From NCBI GenBank assembly GCA_012646185.1, contig GCA_012646185.1_4706.1: 64,000 bases of DNA; one strand, given 5' to 3'. The notes beneath the pieces are model-generated. The model worked only from the letters and a program-made list of their open reading frames with translations. It did no database searches and was not told where the DNA came from. Shown one piece after another: positions 3,789 through 61,203 of this stretch. Position 1 is the stretch's first letter. Every line of letters begins with the position of its first letter. The position numbers were made by a program, and so were the translations under genes. The DNA comes from a phage.

Positions 3789-3994
3789 AAGCGCAACCCT
3801 CCTCCAATAATCAAATTAAAATGTAAAACGCCTCGAAACCGGAGTGCGATTCGAGGTAAGCGTAAACAGTCCAGACGACCACATAAAATTCCGCGCATAT
3901 TGCCCCTCTACCCCGACAAAGCGAGATAGAGGGAGGATAACACTTTGTGCTCTGTGGCACTTCAAAGTTCGTGGGGCGGTAACCGCCCCATCGG

Positions 3995-6900
3995 TTAAAT
4001 TGTTGGTTTTACATCGCGTAATAGGGCAATATAATAGCCTAATCCTCGGAGGATCTCTCCACTCCAGAAACCAAAATACATTCCGTCTCTGCCGAGATTA
4101 GCGCTATCTGGTGCAGGACTCCACCCACCATTCATTACGTCATCAACGGTGTAATGGTTGATGTAGTTCTCAACGATTTCGTTATACGCATTAACAGCAA
4201 CAGAATAACCTTTATCGTTGGGATGTCCGTACAACATTGCTAACGACGCACCCGCCAACCATAATCCTGCCATATGACCAGTAAAATCATTAGGGATAAA
4301 AGCGGGAGGTTTATCCATCGGAAAATCCGTAGGAGATTGATAAGCGTTTTCCTGTTGATACGTAAACAAGAAATCAATCCAATGGCTGATGTAAGTGGTT
4401 AACTTCTCAGGGACGGCTAAACCACGATCGAGCAGTCCAGCATAAAGCCGCACCGCTGAAAAGAAAGCCCTCGGCTGATAACCAGACCATGCCGTCTGAT
4501 CGCCGAAGTGGTACATTGTAAAATCATTAACTTTTGATCCGCTTGGCGCATCCCAACGATCCCACACGTACGCACTTGCCCCCGGCCCTAAAACCCCGAA
4601 TTTCTGATAATACCACTGCTGCGAGTCATACCAGAAATTCACAACATTCTGAATCATGAGGTCACGTCGTTCAGTCGATACGTCCATATCCAGGAAGACC
4701 CATGGATGTTGGTAGCCGGGATAAGGCTGACCACGCCAACTGTCGAACGTCGGTGCGTTAGGGATATAGTTGTTAGAGAACGGAATAATACCCGGAGTAT
4801 AAGGCAACGGATCGAGACGTTGGTTGACAATCGTACAATCGCCAACACGTAATGTTCCCTCCGCCTCAAAGGTTGCTTTTAACGTAAACAGCATGGTATA
4901 TCCGTCATCCGTGGTGTAAGTTGACGGTGGATTGTTGATGGCGTAAAGCTTAAATACCCCTTCAGCGATATCGCTGTCGTCAGGCAAGAACAGAATTTCA
5001 GTTGATCCATCCCCCCACACAGGTGCAGAAGGTTTAGGGTCAGTATCAGCGTGGCCCGGTTGATACCCTGAGAGCCTCCATCCGTTCGCCGAAAGCGTCA
5101 ATGTATTTCTTGCTGTGGTGGCCGGTAGCATATACCACCATCGCCAACCATTTGCATCTTCTACACGAACGTTGTAGTCAATCGACGCGAAATAACTGAC
5201 CTGTCTTACGATCTGTTTTGCGGTTGGATTGAATTCAAATTGCCCGCCTGCCGCAGTAAGCTGCGCTTTTAAGAACAACCCATCCCAGGAATCTTCCGCT
5301 GCTTCGCTGAATTCGGTTGTGATGGCGACATCATCTTTCCAGCCGACTTTATCAGCCGATATCAACACAGAACCTGTAACAGCATCACCGGTTGGTGTTG
5401 AAGCTTCATCAACCGCATCAGCAGGAATCAACGAGCCTATTTTGAAATCCCATCCTTTCGGTTCAGCGCTGGAAGGTAATACCAGCTTGTACGTTTTGGC
5501 GTTCGCTTCGGTTTTGTCCAAAGAAAGCGATAATGAGATCTCAACCGGAATTGCAACACCCGCTGCATCTTTACCGCCGCAGGTTACACGAAGAATTGAA
5601 TCACGATTGACGCGGAACGGAATAGCCTGCTGTTCAAGGTAAATTTGTGCTGAAGATGCTTGAATCACAATCCAACCATCGGTATCACGCGTGATTGTGA
5701 ACGGTGCTTTCGATGGGTATGTATACGTGTAAGCGATACCGTCGGTGTCGTAACGATCGGTTCCTTTTACTTGACGGAAGAACTTATCGTTGGCGTCGAT
5801 ACGGGTATATTCTTCAATCGTAAACAAAGATGCCTTGTACGCTTTCTGATAACGCTCCTGCTGCGTTAAACGATATAAGGTGTAGGCTGCTTCACAAAAC
5901 CACTGTTCAGCGTCTGACGCGTTTCCCATGTAGTCTCTGGTGACCGGTACCTGGATCGGTCGGTTATGCTGACACTCGTTCGTTTTGATAAGGTATCCGC
6001 CATATTCAACAGGAACGCGGGGTGCCCACGCAACCAAATAAGAACCGTTGACGGATTTATCTTTGAGTACGATGGTACCTACTTCATCGTCAGTACACGC
6101 TTCAAGATCGTCCCCGTCAGCACTTACGTAACGTTTTGTGCGTAACGCAACTTTCTCGATAGGGAACACCGTACCCTTTGTATCCCAGTCAATCGTCCCA
6201 TCATCATTGGTTTTGAACACATCGGCGTTCAAATTCTGCCAGCCGAGTTTACCTTCATAGACCTGAACAACAAGATCCATGTATTCCCCGAACGTTGGTG
6301 TACCGTGTGTTATTTTCCCGATACCGTTGGTGAATGTAACCGCTGTGTCATGGAAACCCCCGTGTGTTGGGTAATCGTCTTTTGCAAGAGGATAATGGGC
6401 CAACACCGGTTGCTTACCATTAACGATCCAGTTAGCGATCCAGCGTGTCGGTGTATCCGGTGGTTCAAGGCCTGCGTAGAACGCTTTTATATACGCATCG
6501 AACGATGCCTCTGCTAATGTGAGATAATGCGCTTTAAGCTTGGTATCATCCGTTGTATGGCTGAATATACCCGCACCCAGAATTAACAACGACTGTCCTT
6601 CTGTTGTTGCGTCACCATCCGGTTGTGCTTCCTGTCGTGTTGCTGCAATGAAATGACGGTTGTTTACCATGACCCCGCTTTCATTTAACACGTAATGATC
6701 GGTTTCTGGGTCGGTAAACGTTCCTGTGTTTCGGGTTAAGAATCTTGCATGACCATAACCAACGAAATTAACCGGCGACGCTGTAATCATCCATTTACCG
6801 ATAAGTTGAGCAACATCATTATAACGCTCGGATGCGGTGATTTGTTTCACGTACCAGTCTTTATGGTTAAATGTCCAAAGCAGGAAGTAATAAGTTGTAT

Positions 6901-7591
6901 CGATTTCCATCACTGGGAACGTCGGCGTTAACGGCTCCAGCGTTAAGTAGTTGCTCCAGTCAATCTGTCCGCCAACCACCGATGGGGTAATCTCTAATAA
7001 CTGACACCACTCATAACGGTCCGGTACACTACTGGACGTTGTTGGTAAAGGTAACTTGTATACGCCAGTACGATTCAGATCGAACGCTTTTCTAGCCGAT
7101 CCTAAATCAACATAAATACTCGATGATGCGTTTGCACTATATGCCTCCAAAGCACCTAGCGTTGACCGATACATTGAGATGAACAACGTATCTTTCCAGT
7201 AAGGGTTATCCTTGGTTGGTTCTAAAGCGATTTGTGCAAAAATGCTGTTCTGCGCCCCTAACTGGTATGTTGCATTTAAAGATTCTTCTGTGAAATAACT
7301 TTCTGCAATCGTCAGATGGAACTGCTCGTTCAATAATGCGAGTGCGGCGCGTCCAGTAACATCCTCATTACCGGTTTCTTTTTTCATGATCGCGCCGAAC
7401 GGAAACAATGTCGCGAATGACCGTTTTGGTTTATTAACCGTAACCGTCCCCGTGTATTTTCCAACACCATCAAGTTTTTGACTATCGCCAACAGCAGTGA
7501 CTGCGATACCATCAGCCGGGATATTTGTTTTATTTAGTACATTGAGTTGGTCAACCAGATCCTGCTTATCGTCAGGTAAGAATGTCGCCAT
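3995..7591 (-). CDS. large hypothetical protein (1198 aa), probably virion or tail associated
   Basis: Very long uninterrupted ORF co-oriented with tail fiber genes; no motif recognised by eye. Confidence 0.7.
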   Translation of the reverse strand: MATFLPDDKQDLVDQLNVLNKTNIPADGIAVTAVGDSQKLDGVGKYTGTVTVNKPKRSFATLFPFGAIMKKETGNEDVTGRAALALLNEQFHLTIAESYFTEESLNATYQLGAQNSIFAQIALEPTKDNPYWKDTLFISMYRSTLGALEAYSANASSSIYVDLGSARKAFDLNRTGVYKLPLPTTSSSVPDRYEWCQLLEITPSVVGGQIDWSNYLTLEPLTPTFPVMEIDTTYYFLLWTFNHKDWYVKQITASERYNDVAQLIGKWMITASPVNFVGYGHARFLTRNTGTFTDPETDHYVLNESGVMVNNRHFIAATRQEAQPDGDATTEGQSLLILGAGIFSHTTDDTKLKAHYLTLAEASFDAYIKAFYAGLEPPDTPTRWIANWIVNGKQPVLAHYPLAKDDYPTHGGFHDTAVTFTNGIGKITHGTPTFGEYMDLVVQVYEGKLGWQNLNADVFKTNDDGTIDWDTKGTVFPIEKVALRTKRYVSADGDDLEACTDDEVGTIVLKDKSVNGSYLVAWAPRVPVEYGGYLIKTNECQHNRPIQVPVTRDYMGNASDAEQWFCEAAYTLYRLTQQERYQKAYKASLFTIEEYTRIDANDKFFRQVKGTDRYDTDGIAYTYTYPSKAPFTITRDTDGWIVIQASSAQIYLEQQAIPFRVNRDSILRVTCGGKDAAGVAIPVEISLSLSLDKTEANAKTYKLVLPSSAEPKGWDFKIGSLIPADAVDEASTPTGDAVTGSVLISADKVGWKDDVAITTEFSEAAEDSWDGLFLKAQLTAAGGQFEFNPTAKQIVRQVSYFASIDYNVRVEDANGWRWWYMLPATTARNTLTLSANGWRLSGYQPGHADTDPKPSAPVWGDGSTEILFLPDDSDIAEGVFKLYAINNPPSTYTTDDGYTMLFTLKATFEAEGTLRVGDCTIVNQRLDPLPYTPGIIPFSNNYIPNAPTFDSWRGQPYPGYQHPWVFLDMDVSTERRDLMIQNVVNFWYDSQQWYYQKFGVLGPGASAYVWDRWDAPSGSKVNDFTMYHFGDQTAWSGYQPRAFFSAVRLYAGLLDRGLAVPEKLTTYISHWIDFLFTYQQENAYQSPTDFPMDKPPAFIPNDFTGHMAGLWLAGASLAMLYGHPNDKGYSVAVNAYNEIVENYINHYTVDDVMNGGWSPAPDSANLGRDGMYFGFWSGEILRGLGYYIALLRDVKPTI

Positions 7592-10848: not shown

Positions 10849-10883
10849 ACAGCATAAACCCTTCCTGCTTTACGCAGGAAGGG
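10849..10883 (-). terminator. GC hairpin (ccttcctgc/gcaggaagg) followed on minus strand by GTTTATGCTG box
   Basis: Inverted repeat 10859-10868/10874-10883 with 5-nt loop, between stop of 10898-11395 and start of 10547-10804. Confidence 0.45.
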
Positions 10884-10897
10884 CATACGGATTTGTT

Positions 10898-13730: not shown

Positions 13731-13788
13731 GATAAAGATCCTTATTGAAATAAAATCGGTATAAAGGCCCCCATTTAGGGGGACCTGA

Positions 13789-14106: not shown

Positions 14107-14176
14107 CTTGACATCCTTTTATATTGGATTGATTGCTAATAGTTCAAGGTGAAGCTGATTACTGCATTGCTTCACC

Positions 14177-14196
14177 TAAGTAATATAGCCGTGAAA
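14177..14196 (-). promoter_or_regulatory. conserved 20-mer taagtaatatagccgtgaaa (minus-sense TTTCACGGCTATATTACTTA), candidate early promoter element
   Basis: Identical 20-mer recurs at 42189-42208; both are intergenic and upstream of minus-strand genes; contains TATATTAC. Confidence 0.4.
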
Positions 14197-17710: not shown

Positions 17711-17738
17711 CGGCATAAGCCCTCCCATGTCGGGAGGG
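17711..17738 (-). promoter_or_regulatory. GC hairpin CCCTCCC/GGGAGGG followed on minus strand by CTTATGCCG box
   Basis: Arms 17720-17726 and 17732-17738; same box as at 32318-32326. Confidence 0.4.
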
Positions 17739-32317: not shown

Positions 32318-32347
32318 CGGCATAAGAGCCTCCCATTACGGGAGGCT
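32318..32347 (-). promoter_or_regulatory. GC hairpin (agcctccc/gggaggct) followed on minus strand by CTTATGCCG box
   Basis: Arms 32327-32334 and 32340-32347; box identical to that at 17711-17719. Confidence 0.4.
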
Positions 32348-38923: not shown

Positions 38924-38937
38924 AATAGCCTCGTGAA

Positions 38938-38961
38938 GGTGGATGGGCACACCCATCCACC
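38938..38961 (-). terminator. 10-bp GC hairpin ggtggatggg/cccatccacc with 4-nt loop
   Basis: Perfect inverted repeat between stop of 38987-39493 and start of 38693-38923. Confidence 0.45.
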
Positions 38962-38986
38962 TTCCTCCATGTTAAAGTGCGTTCAT

Positions 38987-40357: not shown

Positions 40358-40388
40358 AACGCAGCATAAACCCTCCCCGAAGGGAGGG
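40358..40388 (-). promoter_or_regulatory. GC hairpin CCCTCCC-TTCG-GGGAGGG followed on minus strand by TTTATGCTGCG box
   Basis: Arms 40371-40377 and 40382-40388 with a TTCG loop in minus sense; directly after stop of phosphatase gene; the ATG begins only a 10-codon ORF. Confidence 0.45.
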
Positions 40389-40398
40389 CGGTTAACGT

Positions 40399-42143: not shown

Positions 42144-42188
42144 CGCACGTACCTCTTTGAATCTATTAATAAATTTTCTTTACTCACG

Positions 42189-42208
42189 TAAGTAATATAG
42201 CCGTGAAA
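42189..42208 (-). promoter_or_regulatory. second copy of conserved 20-mer taagtaatatagccgtgaaa, about 46 nt upstream of ATG at 42143
   Basis: Exact 20/20 identity with 14177-14196; lies in the divergent intergenic region. Confidence 0.4.
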
Positions 42209-56962: not shown

Positions 56963-58549
56963 TTAGAAGTTGCCTTTGGTAGTTACCGCATCCACCAGGT
57001 TAAACAAATCAACGCTCAGCTTATACACCTCCTGCTGGCTACGGTTGAGCAGCGGGCTGTATGCAGATGGGTTGATGTTCGGCATGGTGTACGGAATCGG
57101 TGCAGAACCGTCAACGCTGATCTTGAACTGGCTGTCCAGGAACAGGTTAATCGCGCCGCTCACCATAACCGCATTCGGGTTGTTGCCCAACATGGAGGGT
57201 AGGATATTGGTAATCATGTCAGAACGCATTTGTTCAGCAGCACGGTTACAATCGTATCCTTTAATGAACGGTACTGCGTCGGTAACCGCAACCGCCCACT
57301 GACCAGGCATGATACCGAGTTCTGGGTGACCATGGTTGTCAGCAATGAAACGGAACGATTCCAACATGCGGTATGTCATCGCAGCAGGCATCATTGCAGC
57401 AAGCGATGAGCAATACAGCGTTGGATAATCGATCACGTCCCAGCTCTGACTATCGGTCGGCATCCAACCAAACTCGGTGGTTGCTGATGTACCACGACGA
57501 GCTTCCACATACGGGAATAACGTTAAGACATCACGGATATGTTCACCGAACATCCGTTTCATGTCCGCCCAACTCAGGCTGCCGCTGAACGCGAATCCTT
57601 CATCACGCATAATCGCACCGAATACCGGATGCGCAACCAACGGTTCTTCGCGAACAGCTTGAGCGGCTTCTACGTAAATATCCTCGTTCTCTGCGCTACC
57701 TGGATGAGACCCGCTTTCGTACGTCTGACGAATAGCCCCAACATTATCGAAGGCTTTTCTTAGATAAATGGTTGGGATGTTCGTATCGGCACTAGCGGGT
57801 TTGATTTTCTCTGTTGCGAAACACATTGCTGCTTCCACACCACGGAAAACCGGTTCCGGTTGCGGTGGATAGGATGTACGATGAACCACATCAGCGTAGG
57901 CGGGATCGAACTGTTGCATTACGTTCTGCATGGCTGGGTCCATGAACTGGTTATCAAAACCACCATTGCCCACCCAACGCGCTGTTGATGCATAGGTCAG
58001 CGTATCCTGAACACGAGTACTGAACTGAACATCACGATTAACCGGGTCGTATGCGCCGGTCAACAGGTTCGTTGCGTCCATCGGGGTTGCACGAACGATT
58101 TGCTTACCGAACATATCCGTTGTGGTTGTTTCGGTTACCTGGATTACGTTCGTGAAGAAGAACACCAGTTCGTTCGGCAGATCGATAGCGCGCGTTGTAA
58201 ACGCATCGAGGCTTACAGAATGGTCGGTGTATCCAGAAATGTAATGGACACGCTTGGTTCCTGGTGCGAGGGTCAAGGATTCTTCTACCGCCATCATGAA
58301 ATGGAAACGACGTGTGCCCCAACCATTCGCAATCTCCGAAACCCCCTCAGGTTCTGCAGACTGCTGCAACAAACCGGTTGCAAGCTTATTGATTGCTGAT
58401 GGTGTTGTTGCCGTACCGAACTTCGTCGTGTTAATGAAGTCTTCGATGCTACGCATGCTATCTGCGTGGAATCGTAGTGGGCGACGTTGTACGTTGTTGT
58501 ACGGTGCGGTTTCAACCATCAGTATTTCACGAACATTCATCGGGATCAT
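56963..58549 (-). CDS. hypothetical protein (528 aa)
   Basis: Long ORF, co-oriented, 1-nt gap to upstream gene. Confidence 0.6.
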   Translation of the reverse strand: MIPMNVREILMVETAPYNNVQRRPLRFHADSMRSIEDFINTTKFGTATTPSAINKLATGLLQQSAEPEGVSEIANGWGTRRFHFMMAVEESLTLAPGTKRVHYISGYTDHSVSLDAFTTRAIDLPNELVFFFTNVIQVTETTTTDMFGKQIVRATPMDATNLLTGAYDPVNRDVQFSTRVQDTLTYASTARWVGNGGFDNQFMDPAMQNVMQQFDPAYADVVHRTSYPPQPEPVFRGVEAAMCFATEKIKPASADTNIPTIYLRKAFDNVGAIRQTYESGSHPGSAENEDIYVEAAQAVREEPLVAHPVFGAIMRDEGFAFSGSLSWADMKRMFGEHIRDVLTLFPYVEARRGTSATTEFGWMPTDSQSWDVIDYPTLYCSSLAAMMPAAMTYRMLESFRFIADNHGHPELGIMPGQWAVAVTDAVPFIKGYDCNRAAEQMRSDMITNILPSMLGNNPNAVMVSGAINLFLDSQFKISVDGSAPIPYTMPNINPSAYSPLLNRSQQEVYKLSVDLFNLVDAVTTKGNF

Positions 58550-58550
58550 T

Positions 58551-60137
58551 TTATTTTTTTCCTCTTAAATTTACTACGTGTTCATTTAATCGAACAACTA
58601 ATTGCACAAGCTGCTGACGGATATCTGCTGGACAAAGCATCAATCCTTTACGGTCAGCTGGGACTTTCTCAAGGATTTCCGGGCCTGCTGCTGAAACATC
58701 CCAGTCCCATTCACAAAACGCATCGGCCACCATGTTAATACCGACAACCGGTAAAGTTGTACGTTCATCTTCATACATGGCGTGTGGATACAATTTATTG
58801 ACAGTAATGATCTCCTGTGGTTTTAATTGGTGGATAATCTGATAAACATCGTCGCGTTTGACCTGGATACCTACGGTCAGCGCTGCCAGTTGAGGAAAAC
58901 CCCAATGGTCTAATAAGCAAGCTGCAATCGCTAACGCTTTTGCTTGATGCACGGCTTCAATCGGTGCCAGACTTCTCGCCGGAAGATGGCTATCAAGCAA
59001 CCATTGTGCCAGTGCTCGGCATCCACGGTTGATTGGTTTTAACTCAACGGTGTCATCATGTTTAGCGTACGTGTATCCGTCGTAACGTTTTGCGATACGC
59101 GCATACATGTCTTCAACTTTACCGTAAGGTGCCGTTTCGTCGACGTCGTGCAACACACGTTCCATCTGGGTAAGATACGCGATATCAAGAATGAGTACAC
59201 GCGGTGAACGTTTATCTTTCACCATCAACGCATCAATCACGCCTTGACTGTCTTCATCTTGCGCGTTCCCTCGTGGGGTTTTCTCACGAATCGGTCCGCT
59301 GAAACGTCGTTCCGTACAAAGGTTATTCACATAGCTAAAGATCAGTGTTACCAGATGCGTACAACTCACCAACACCCCATCTTTAACGACAGGCTGTACG
59401 GCTTGGTCCAAGTCGCGTACGGCGAGACGGCGGACGATGGCTTGTGAACGCAACCAGCCGGGCACTTTCTCCGTCGACATGTAATCCACGGTCATCGACA
59501 GCGTGATCTTTTTATCACCCGTCTGTGCGCGGATATAGTCTTCCAGTCGGTCGTAAGCGGCGATATCGTGAATGCGTGTTTTATACATCAACGACATAGC
59601 CACTTCTTCTTTACGAACCGTTCCGTACGTTTTCCCTGCGTCAATCAGAAACTCTGCCCAAATCGGCACCATCAGACGGACGTAGATCGCTAACGCCGTT
59701 AACTCAACGTAATCATTTCGTAAATAGGTTTTCTCAGGAATATCATCCTCACCTAATGTTGTTTTCATGTCCGGCGGTAATTTTACCCAACCCGGGGTAT
59801 TACACAACGCCAGAATCTCTTCGTACACAACCGGTTTGTAAATTTCACCAACAGCGCGACTCAACTCCTCCATTTGTTGTTGTGGAGCAATGTAGTTATC
59901 CATCGCTTCACGTGCTTTAACGAACCCTTCGAAGATGTCGTCAATTCGACGTGGGTTCTTTTGTTCTATCCAGGCGAGATACTTGTTAATCTCCCGCATC
60001 TGATTGCTAGCCATATCCCCATCAATCTTGATGTAACCCTGACCTGAAAATTCCACAGTACGTCCATCACGGTGTTTGATGAGATAGTGATCCAGCTTTT
60101 CTTTTCCTTGCGTCGTAATGACGGGCACTATGTGCAT
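58551..60137 (-). CDS. hypothetical protein (~528 aa)
   Basis: Start moved to ATG 60137 (MHIVPV) with AAGAGG SD. Confidence 0.6.
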   Translation of the reverse strand: MHIVPVITTQGKEKLDHYLIKHRDGRTVEFSGQGYIKIDGDMASNQMREINKYLAWIEQKNPRRIDDIFEGFVKAREAMDNYIAPQQQMEELSRAVGEIYKPVVYEEILALCNTPGWVKLPPDMKTTLGEDDIPEKTYLRNDYVELTALAIYVRLMVPIWAEFLIDAGKTYGTVRKEEVAMSLMYKTRIHDIAAYDRLEDYIRAQTGDKKITLSMTVDYMSTEKVPGWLRSQAIVRRLAVRDLDQAVQPVVKDGVLVSCTHLVTLIFSYVNNLCTERRFSGPIREKTPRGNAQDEDSQGVIDALMVKDKRSPRVLILDIAYLTQMERVLHDVDETAPYGKVEDMYARIAKRYDGYTYAKHDDTVELKPINRGCRALAQWLLDSHLPARSLAPIEAVHQAKALAIAACLLDHWGFPQLAALTVGIQVKRDDVYQIIHQLKPQEIITVNKLYPHAMYEDERTTLPVVGINMVADAFCEWDWDVSAAGPEILEKVPADRKGLMLCPADIRQQLVQLVVRLNEHVVNLRGKK

Positions 60138-60194
60138 AACAACCTCTTTTCGCGGTTCCCTGTTAAAACGTCTTCTGTGACGTCTACCACAAAG

Positions 60195-60210
60195 GTAATA
60201 TAAGCGTGAA
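60195..60210 (-). promoter_or_regulatory. variant of the conserved promoter-like element (gtaatataagcgtgaa), about 58 nt upstream of ATG at 60137
   Basis: Matches the 20-mer at 14177 and 42189 at 14 of 16 positions; minus-sense reads TTCACGCTTATATTAC. Confidence 0.3.
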
Positions 60211-60341
60211 TAATTTTGGATTCCGGCTGAGTTATCGCTCAGCATGCAAGGCATCCCGCCGAAGCGAGACACCTTGCACTAACGGAAAATATTCGCGTTA
60301 CCTTCTGAATCGAAGACTCAGAATGCGATGCTAAAGCGTTA

Positions 60342-61130
60342 TTAGAACGCTAAGCCATCAAAGGCTATGGACGGATCGTCGTCGTCATTTGCGCTTGGCG
60401 CATCCCAACGGGTATCAGGGGCCGCTGAAGCCGAACTTGATGCGTTAGAGTTACCGTTGTACTGGCCATTACCAGCATTACGGTTACCGCCGCCGTTGTT
60501 ATTGTTACGGTTATAGCTATTGTTGCCATTACTTACGCTACGGCTTTCACCGTCGAAATTGGTTGCGAGGATGCTCGGCAACACTGCGCGATGAATACGT
60601 ACAAATTCCAACGCACAAAGCGGAGAAACAACCCCGATCTGTAAAGGTTGCCCAGACTCATCAACCAGAGCGTGGAAACGCGGCGGCTTGAATACGAATT
60701 GGATGTTCGGTTTTTGGTACGCTGTTACAGCGATATATACCGAACCATCATCGTTCTTACCAACCCATGTTGTACTTTCGGTAATCTGTTTCTTCTTACC
60801 TGGGTTATTGCGATCGTCGATAACCTTTTCGTTCTTCATCGCAAAACGTTGGCCTGGTTTACCCTTAGCAACCTGCTCGAGGATCGCAAGCAGGTTATAG
60901 AACGCGTATGAACTCATGCGCGCCCAAATGCTTTCAGCGCGACCCTGCTGGTCTTTACGACCGGTGTAAACCGTGATACGCGGTTGATTCTTAGCAACGC
61001 TAATTTTCAATGAGGGGATTGAATTACCGCCCTCAACCTTTTCGTCCGCCCACAGTTTCCAGTTGTTGTCGTCATACGCTGTAGGAATAATGTTTCCTTG
61101 TGGTTTACTGCCCGAATTCCAATTGCTCAT
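60342..61130 (-). CDS. putative single-stranded DNA-binding protein (SSB-like architecture)
   Basis: Globular N-terminal part, then Asn/Gly-rich linker (NRNNNNGGGNRNAGNGQYNGNSN) and acidic C-terminal tip DDDDPSIAFDGLAF, reminiscent of SSB tails ending DDDIPF. Confidence 0.45.
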   Translation of the reverse strand: MSNWNSGSKPQGNIIPTAYDDNNWKLWADEKVEGGNSIPSLKISVAKNQPRITVYTGRKDQQGRAESIWARMSSYAFYNLLAILEQVAKGKPGQRFAMKNEKVIDDRNNPGKKKQITESTTWVGKNDDGSVYIAVTAYQKPNIQFVFKPPRFHALVDESGQPLQIGVVSPLCALEFVRIHRAVLPSILATNFDGESRSVSNGNNSYNRNNNNGGGNRNAGNGQYNGNSNASSSASAAPDTRWDAPSANDDDDPSIAFDGLAF

Positions 61131-61203
61131 TTTCAGCCTCGTTACGTAGTGTGAATCAATTTCTGGTTCAGATGATAGTCAATATTAGTTAAAAATTACA
61201 GCC

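Follow-up and report, generated by a model that had tools for sequence, protein, structure and literature searches.

An intergenic region between chmC and the gp68 homologue of a Goslar-like chimallivirus: putative 3'-end hairpins, a candidate early promoter and a structured leader

Early transcription signals of jumbo phages and the chmC-gp175 locus

Jumbo phages that encode their own RNA polymerases each have a conserved AT-rich motif of ~10 nt near position -10 upstream of their early operons, and such motifs are detectable bioinformatically (PMC7598289). In 201phi2-1, an early promoter was mapped upstream of gp124 by ONT-cappable-seq (PMC11512511). Mapping of 3' ends in phiKZ and 201phi2-1 yielded the intrinsic terminator motif BCCYCCCCHWWDGGGRRGGBYTTATKYYGT (PMC10914365; PMC11512511). 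The non-virion RNA polymerase (nvRNAP) subunits of phiKZ are all early gene products, and gp68 is the fifth of them (PMC4666361). ChmC, which is gp176 in phage Goslar, is an abundant, early-expressed RNA-binding protein with a Whirly domain and a C-terminal tail that is N/G-rich and then acidic (PMC11077065).

We analyzed a 64-kb stretch of phage DNA, referred to below as the window, in which homologues of these two genes flank a gap of 204 nt. Approximately 1 kb around the gap showed 98.6% identity to Escherichia phage vB_EcoM_Goslar (Chimalliviridae), a nucleus-forming jumbo phage that serves as the E. coli model for such phages. A BLAST search of the gap returned Goslar as the sole match among phage records and no match among 5,426 E. 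coli genomes. Judged by sequence identity, the source of the window is a Goslar-like chimallivirus. The locus comprises the following parts.

60342..61130, minus strand: chmC (Goslar gp176; Whirly-domain RNA-binding, phage-nucleus-associated), the gene upstream of the gap
60138-60341, with minus-strand genes on either side: the 204-nt gap between chmC and the gp68 homologue
58551..60137, minus strand: the phiKZ gp68 homologue (Goslar gp175), the gene downstream of the gap

The product of 60342-61130 had 100% protein identity with Goslar gp176 and 33% identity with phiKZ gp67 (E = 8e-20), and its tail was N/G-rich and then acidic, as described for ChmC (PMC11077065). The gene ends with tandem in-frame stops, TAA TAA (60339-60344, minus strand), the second of which is absent from some Goslar-like genomes. 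On the other side of the gap, 58551-60137 matched PHIKZ068 by tblastn (E = 4e-27), and its product matched chain B of PDB 7OGP, 'PHIKZ068', by phmmer (E = 6e-28). The Goslar GenBank record annotates neither an early promoter nor a transcription-unit boundary at the gap, and no terminator within it.

Two observations concern the neighboring sequences. The gap of 73 nt upstream of chmC (61131-61203, minus strand) was likewise strongly conserved, with 4/73 variable sites in Goslar-like genomes, and did not contain the early-promoter motif described below; a promoter of another class or a translation signal may reside there. The gp175 gene (58551-60137) and the phiKZ gp69 homologue gp174 (56963-58549), both on the minus strand, lie 1 nt apart and encode 528 aa each. 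Paralogy of the two was considered and rejected, as no sequence similarity was found (E = 0.08).

The initial annotation had moved the start of gp175 to the ATG at 60137. This is correct: the Goslar record uses the same ATG, the Shine-Dalgarno sequence AAGAGG precedes it, and homologues with 51-53% identity align from Met1. The 30 nt preceding this ATG were invariant in nine genomes, namely the window and eight further Goslar-like genomes from viral and metagenomic collections, which were used for the gap alignment and for the pair counts given below.

Folding and conservation of the gap

The gap had been described as hairpin-dense. Its minimum free energy in minus sense was -75.2 kcal/mol, compared with -51.6 +/- 4.3 kcal/mol for dinucleotide shuffles (z = -5.56), and none of 200 shuffles folded as well. 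By raw energy it ranked in the top ~17 among 3753 overlapping, sliding minus-sense segments of 204 nt and was one of four or five top loci. After G+C correction the locus ranked first in the window, being surpassed only by overlapping segments of itself; the description is therefore correct and the density unusual for the window. Every stem-loop named in the initial annotation was found on the minus strand in its place.

Other segments of very low energy were located at 57252-57506, 4382-4636 and 3889-4109 (all minus strand) and at 38935-38964. Two of these are within coding sequence (the gp174 homologue and a large gene at 3995-7591). Of the others, one corresponds to an intergenic gap containing hairpins at 3903-3934 and 3972-3990, and one to a perfect palindromic hairpin of 13 bp, stable on either strand.

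Within the gap, hairpin 2 accounts for the bulk of the folding signal. The preceding 62 nt, hairpin 3 and the leader were individually marginal (z ~ -2 to -2.6). No mutually exclusive alternative pairing was predicted in the fold of the gap, and ARAGORN detected no tRNA or tmRNA there. Hairpins 1 to 3 are carried by the chmC 3' UTR.

60303..60323, minus strand: hairpin 1, 9-bp stem UUCUGAGUC-UUC-GAUUCAGAA; lineage-specific, weakly supported
60280..60300, minus strand: small predicted hairpin, UAACG.GAA-UAUU-UUCCGUUA
60244..60279, minus strand: hairpin 2, GUGCAAGGUGUCUCGC-UUCG-GCGGGAUGCCUUGCAU, 16 bp with a cUUCGg tetraloop; -26.5 kcal/mol, z = -7.1
60226..60243, minus strand: hairpin 3, GCUGAG-CGAUAA-CUCAGC, 6-bp stem; z = -2.6

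Hairpin 2 is the strongest perfect hairpin of the window. Because four of its 16 bp are G.U pairs, it is stable only in gene-sense RNA, and no plus-strand hairpin was found at 60244..60279. The cUUCGg loop is of an extra-stable type and also caps several canonical Goslar terminators. The 3' end of hairpin 2 lies 98 nt past the chmC stop and exactly 33 nt before the TTCACG box of the promoter motif. Hairpin 2 was invariant at 35/36 positions in the nine genomes, the exception being a change of the outermost pair from G.U to A-U. Hairpin 3 abuts it directly, without a spacer; its stem was invariant in the nine genomes, with one change in the loop.

Hairpin 1 lies in a 62-nt block with z = -2.55. 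Across the nine genomes it showed three one-sided changes that preserve pairing, one mismatch and a freely varying loop. In one genome (L003, 4809-4829) its apex, comprising the upper stem and loop (9 nt), is exactly inverted from GTCTTCGAT to ATCGAAGAC, which converts a G.U pair to an A.C mismatch in the sense RNA. This change is a hairpin-mediated micro-inversion. Since exact apex inversion is typical of inverted repeats, some of the pairing-preserving change may be mutational and not selected. The pairing of the small hairpin at 60280..60300 was broken in 4 cells of the nine-genome comparison, and this hairpin is probably non-functional.

Variable sites were counted in a 6.6-kb alignment of eight genomes, with the following results.

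Third codon positions of chmC and gp175: 315/792 variable (40%)
Hairpin 2, hairpin 3 and promoter core, 60191-60279: 5/89 variable (5.6%; Fisher p = 2e-12 vs third codon positions)
First 62 nt of the gap, with hairpin 1 and the small hairpin: 27% variable
Leader: 17% variable

A covariation check, as proposed in the initial annotation, was too sparse for significance on the nine genomes, with 59/500 shuffles reaching the observed total. Hairpin 2 was invariant even where pairing-neutral transitions were possible, suggesting a constraint on its sequence and not only on its pairing.

More distant relatives were then compared at the same position. In two metagenomic relatives with 51-53% gp175 identity (L009 and L010), the gap is 169 and 132 nt long and folds with z = -5.6 and -5.0, respectively. 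It contains one perfect hairpin of 13-14 bp, unrelated in sequence and without a U-tract, followed by CTACATTACCTA(A/T)GTG and then by a Shine-Dalgarno sequence and the start codon; hairpins 1 and 3 have no counterpart in either relative. In phiKZ, 201phi2-1, PhiEaH1, Ea35-70, SPLA10, PCH45, Moabite and two further lineages (L013 and L015), the gap measures 103-353 nt. In these, a hairpin of -16 to -30 kcal/mol closely follows the chmC homologue, and a TAYATTA-type box lies 30-60 nt upstream of the gp68 homologue. The Moabite hairpin is an annotated terminator. TATGC(C/T), the tail of the phiKZ-type terminator motif, comes after the orthologous hairpin in phiKZ, 201phi2-1, Ea35-70 and L015.

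Altogether, the order chmC, strong hairpin, early promoter and gp68 homologue was present in 13/13 chimallivirus lineages examined. In the 12 lineages other than the Goslar-like one, a sequence-unrelated hairpin of 12-16 bp occupies the place of hairpin 2, right after chmC. These results indicate that the architecture is conserved across the family, with one hairpin only, whose sequence is free to change. The three to four hairpins of the present gap exceed the single hairpin of the relatives.

We infer from its strength and position that the chmC transcription unit has hairpin 2 as its principal 3'-end element, a putative terminator or 3' stabilizer. No canonical bacterial terminator was found, as GCUGAG follows hairpin 2 and CGGAAUCC follows hairpin 3 in place of a U-tract. 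A scan for sigma-70 and intrinsic-terminator consensus sequences gave no site in 60138-60341. This was expected because, to our knowledge, chimalliviruses do not use the host RNA polymerase. Canonical terminator copies of the form GCCCTCCC-loop-GGGAGGGT followed by TTATGCYG are numerous in the window and in Goslar. At three Goslar early promoters such a hairpin ends 33-37 nt before the TTCACG box, and the spacing between hairpin 2 and its promoter is the same.

In the window, G+C-rich hairpins of the canonical kind with TTATGC(C/T)G directly after them are located at 10858-10884, 17720-17738, 32327-32347, 40370-40389 and 13765-13786 (all minus strand). TATG is the core of the phiKZ late promoter; since the tail of canonical terminators contains it, late transcription may also start at these sites.

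Early promoter motif and leader of gp175

Downstream of hairpin 3, three elements precede the gp175 coding sequence.

60188..60210, minus strand: early (virion-RNA-polymerase type) promoter motif, TTCACGCTTATATTACCTTTGTG, 23 nt
60166..60185, minus strand: hairpin 4, AGACGUC-ACAGAA-GACGUUU, 7-bp stem, close to where the gp175 mRNA is predicted to start
60143..60148, minus strand: Shine-Dalgarno sequence AAGAGG, read from the sequence, 5 nt upstream of the ATG at 60137

A promoter-like element had been noted at 60195-60210. It proved to be a genuine motif that lies inside the longer conserved 60188-60210 element and recurs upstream of genes. Its TATATTAC core (60195-60202) alone was not over-represented in the window (3 found vs 2.5 expected), whereas the extended motif TTCACGnnTATATTACnTnnGTG matched three times vs 0.04 expected, and 3/3 of these matches were on the minus strand, intergenic and upstream of same-strand genes. 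In the nine genomes, the 32 nt up to ...TTACCT were invariant.

Two further perfect copies in the window, TTCACGGCTATATTACTTA(G/C)GTG, are located at 14173-14195 and 42185-42207 (both minus strand), each intergenic and upstream of minus-strand genes; the copy at 14173-14195 is immediately followed by an 8-bp stem, GGTGAAGC...GCTTCACC.

In the Goslar genome, ~12 sites fit TTCACGnCTAYATTACYTnnnTGA, all of them upstream of same-strand genes. One precedes Goslar_00189, which from its size and position is presumed to be the shell-protein gene chmA; published gp numbers for chimallin differ between papers. A full-text literature search for TATATTAC gave irrelevant matches only, and no Goslar early-promoter consensus was found in the literature searched. 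The pattern given here provides an explicit consensus for Goslar.

The same kind of box is found at the orthologous position in other phages. In the phiKZ gp67-gp68 gap, TCTATATTAC lies 28 nt before the gp68 start codon, and 201phi2-1 gp124, the gene with the mapped early promoter, is the gp68 homologue. Upstream of the gp68 homologue, a TAYATTA(C/T) box was present in phiKZ, 201phi2-1, PhiEaH1, Moabite, SPLA10, PCH45, L009 and L010. Motif recurrence and position suggest that 60188-60210 is the early promoter of the gp175 operon, probably read by the virion RNA polymerase, and homology with phiKZ gp68 and its 201phi2-1 counterpart suggests that the gene under its control is an early one. We place the predicted transcription start at ~60188 +/- 3, since early motifs are reported to center near -10 and since, in several Goslar early leaders, the stem opens with base 1 or 2 of the (G/A)TGA element.

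Two variations around the promoter core were observed. In 3/9 Goslar-like genomes (L003/L029, IMGVR_UViG_3300011560, 4933-4971; L023; L024), an indel of 38-39 nt with TTACCT direct repeats at its ends is located directly after the core. The extra segment carries its own 8-bp hairpin, CUCUAUGA...UCAUAGAG, and brings the downstream part of the promoter closer to the consensus (ACCTCTATGA). The indel was not found elsewhere in Goslar or the window as a repeat or mobile element. In addition, an inverted copy of 7-8 nt of the core (AAGGTAA/TAGGTAA vs TTACCTT/TTACCTA) is present upstream in the gap in three lineages (window, 60296-60302; L009, 4905-4911; L010, 839-845), and the minimum-energy fold of L009 pairs it with the promoter core. 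Though recurrent, the inverted copy probably arose by chance.

The initial annotation had also proposed a leader with regulatory structure. A structured leader was indeed found for the last ~50 nt, which hold a 7-bp stem-loop (hairpin 4) and the Shine-Dalgarno sequence AAGAGG; the rest of the gap is chmC 3' UTR and promoter. Hairpin 4 showed one compensatory change, C-G to U-A, among the nine genomes, and visual inspection revealed an A-U to G.U change in JACXXQ01. At at least 6/12 Goslar early promoters, a stem starts at nt 1-2 of the (G/A)TGA element that follows. Such stems were observed, for example, at Goslar 49740, 86713, 113805 and 226703 (L004-L008) and at 60166-60190 in the window. 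The first 40 nt after Goslar early promoters folded better than background (p = 0.04, and p = 0.003 vs a low-G+C, G+C-matched background), a modest enrichment. These findings suggest that Goslar early mRNAs have base-paired 5' ends. Stabilizing stem-loops at 5' termini are known in bacterial and phage mRNAs, for example the hairpin of the ompA 5' UTR.

Proposed model, alternative readings and comparison with known systems

The structure of the gap is a composite of three adjacent signals, not one RNA. We consider it likely that the gap forms the boundary between two early transcription units and is made up of chmC 3'-end hairpins, an early promoter and the structured leader of gp175. Transcripts from upstream would end or be trimmed in the chmC 3' UTR (60226-60341). 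There, hairpin 2, aided by hairpin 3 and perhaps hairpin 1, would serve as a terminator of the phage type and/or obstruct 3' exonucleases, and the abundant chmC mRNA would thereby acquire a stable 3' end. TTCACGCTTATATTACCTTTGTG would be read by the injected virion RNA polymerase, and the new transcript would begin at ~60188. Its leader of ~50 nt would combine a 5'-proximal stem-loop, probably protective, with the AAGAGG ribosome-binding site, and would be followed by the gene for the gp68-like nvRNAP subunit and, probably, by the next two genes.

The model places a concrete transcription-unit boundary beside chmC and the gp68-like nvRNAP subunit gene, in an arrangement of chmC, hairpin, early promoter and gp68 homologue that is conserved across Chimalliviridae. 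It can be used in the design of knock-downs, reporters and engineered phages, in the reading of existing Goslar RNA-seq and in annotation.

Other readings were weighed against this one. The hairpins could form a regulated read-through or processing element. Transcripts from chmC would then run on into gp175, and the ratio of chmC to nvRNAP-subunit expression would be set by alternative folds, by an antiterminator or by cleavage at hairpins 2-3 by an RNase (III or E). No spacer separates hairpin 2 from hairpin 3, and termination may be partial, since the terminator is non-canonical and lacks a U-tract. The minimum-energy fold of L009 pairs the promoter region with upstream sequence, and long stems have been proposed to modulate antitermination in 201phi2-1 (PMC11512511). 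However, no mutually exclusive alternative pairing was predicted, and the long-range inverted 7-mers are short enough to arise by chance. The 16-bp stem of hairpin 2 is below the length of typical RNase III substrates, which are longer. Read-through is also not needed, as a well-conserved promoter dedicated to gp175 follows after 33 nt. We regard this reading as unlikely.

The near-total invariance of hairpin 2 bears on a further group of readings. Hairpins 2-3 could be a lineage-specific, sequence-recognized cis element in the chmC 3' UTR, serving as a site for ChmC or another phage protein that feeds back on chmC, as a mark directing export out of the phage nucleus or as the source of a stable small RNA derived from the 3' UTR. 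If true, this would explain why 35/36 positions of hairpin 2 are frozen despite the available pairing-neutral changes; in our estimate its probability is low.

One form of RNA product was raised in the initial annotation, which saw more structure than a simple terminator needs and suggested a small RNA. In this reading, hairpins 1-3 constitute a stable trans-acting non-coding RNA, originating from the chmC 3' UTR or made as a transcript of its own. With G+C corrected for, no other stretch of the window is as structure-dense as the gap, hairpins 2-3 are nearly invariant in Goslar-like genomes, and short structured RNAs beside promoters or terminators have been reported in phiKZ and 201phi2-1 (PMC10914365; PMC11512511). 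A separate small RNA was nevertheless not borne out. The suggested Rfam search (Rfam 15, permissive E-value) gave no family match, the best hit, istR, being at noise level (17.8 bits vs a gathering score of 45; E = 1.7). Neither the early-promoter motif nor a TATG motif was found upstream of the hairpins. Among the relatives only one strong hairpin is conserved in position, and those with 51-53% identity have a single unrelated hairpin and no conserved single-stranded seed. Hairpin 1 falls in the 62-nt block with 27% variable sites, the small hairpin is disrupted in several genomes, and the hairpin cluster is single-copy in Goslar and the window, without a repeat or mobile-element copy and without a match in E. 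coli genomes. A trans-acting RNA is thus very unlikely.

A sequence-specific site for a phage protein on hairpin 2, with or without hairpin 3, could be bound by ChmC, for autoregulation or as an mRNA-export mark, or by a transcription factor acting on the adjacent promoter. The one observation pointing to it is the invariance of hairpin 2, at 35/36 positions in nine genomes vs ~40% variable silent sites and with many pairing-neutral transitions possible; eCLIP in PhiPA3 also located ChmC on its own mRNA, across the whole ORF (PMC11077065). On the other side, ChmC has little or no sequence specificity among phage mRNAs (PMC11077065), and the other Goslar early promoters have no hairpin of this sequence at a fixed distance. 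The hairpin sequence is wholly different in L009, L010, phiKZ and other lineages, so that specific recognition would be confined to one lineage, and we judge such a site highly improbable.

Finally, the chance that the gap is coding, as an N-terminal extension of gp175 from GTG 60272 or as a small ORF, is negligible: a frame is open from 60272 into gp175, but the extension is ruled out because it is frameshifted in 4/9 Goslar-like genomes, by the 38-39-nt indel in three and by two 1-nt deletions in a fourth, in line with the initial reading of the gap as non-coding; in addition, GTG 60272 sits within hairpin 2, the Shine-Dalgarno sequence precedes ATG 60137, and homologues begin at the same Met, as does the Goslar record.

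The transcription-unit boundary that we favor includes no new kind of element: its promoter belongs with the early promoters of chimalliviruses, its upstream hairpins with phage terminators or 3' hairpins, and its leader stem with 5' stem-loops, all of them known kinds. Compared with the phiKZ-type terminator, hairpin 2 is likewise a strong sense-strand stem-loop, less than 100 nt after the stop and at the end of a transcription unit. Its tail, ATGCTG (CATGCTG), resembles TTATGCTG; as (GC)ATGCTGAG it matches at 6/8 positions, without TT. Hairpin 2 differs in two defining features of the motif: its stem is not a C-run/G-run (CCYCCCC...GGGRRGG), and no TTAT (TTATKYYGT) tail directly follows the stem. 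The stem is also longer (16 bp), and hairpin 3 occupies the place of the tail.

Compared with phiKZ-type early promoters, which the virion RNA polymerase reads and which have an AT-rich, extended -10-like motif (Ceyssens 2014 via PMC7598289; PMC8244752; PMC10914365), the TATATTAC core is identical to that upstream of phiKZ gp68, and the Goslar motif recurs upstream of presumed early operons, including that of the shell-protein gene. The element lies ~50 nt before an early nvRNAP-subunit gene whose orthologous promoter in 201phi2-1 has been mapped. The flanks differ: in Goslar, TTCACG is located 2 nt upstream and (G/A)TGA ~5 nt downstream of the core, whereas the phiKZ copy has an A-run in their place. 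Hairpin 4, for its part, resembles the stabilizing 5' hairpins of the ompA type in being only a few nucleotides away from the predicted 5' end and in recurring at other Goslar early promoters. It differs from them in that its 5' end is a predicted one and the enrichment is modest.
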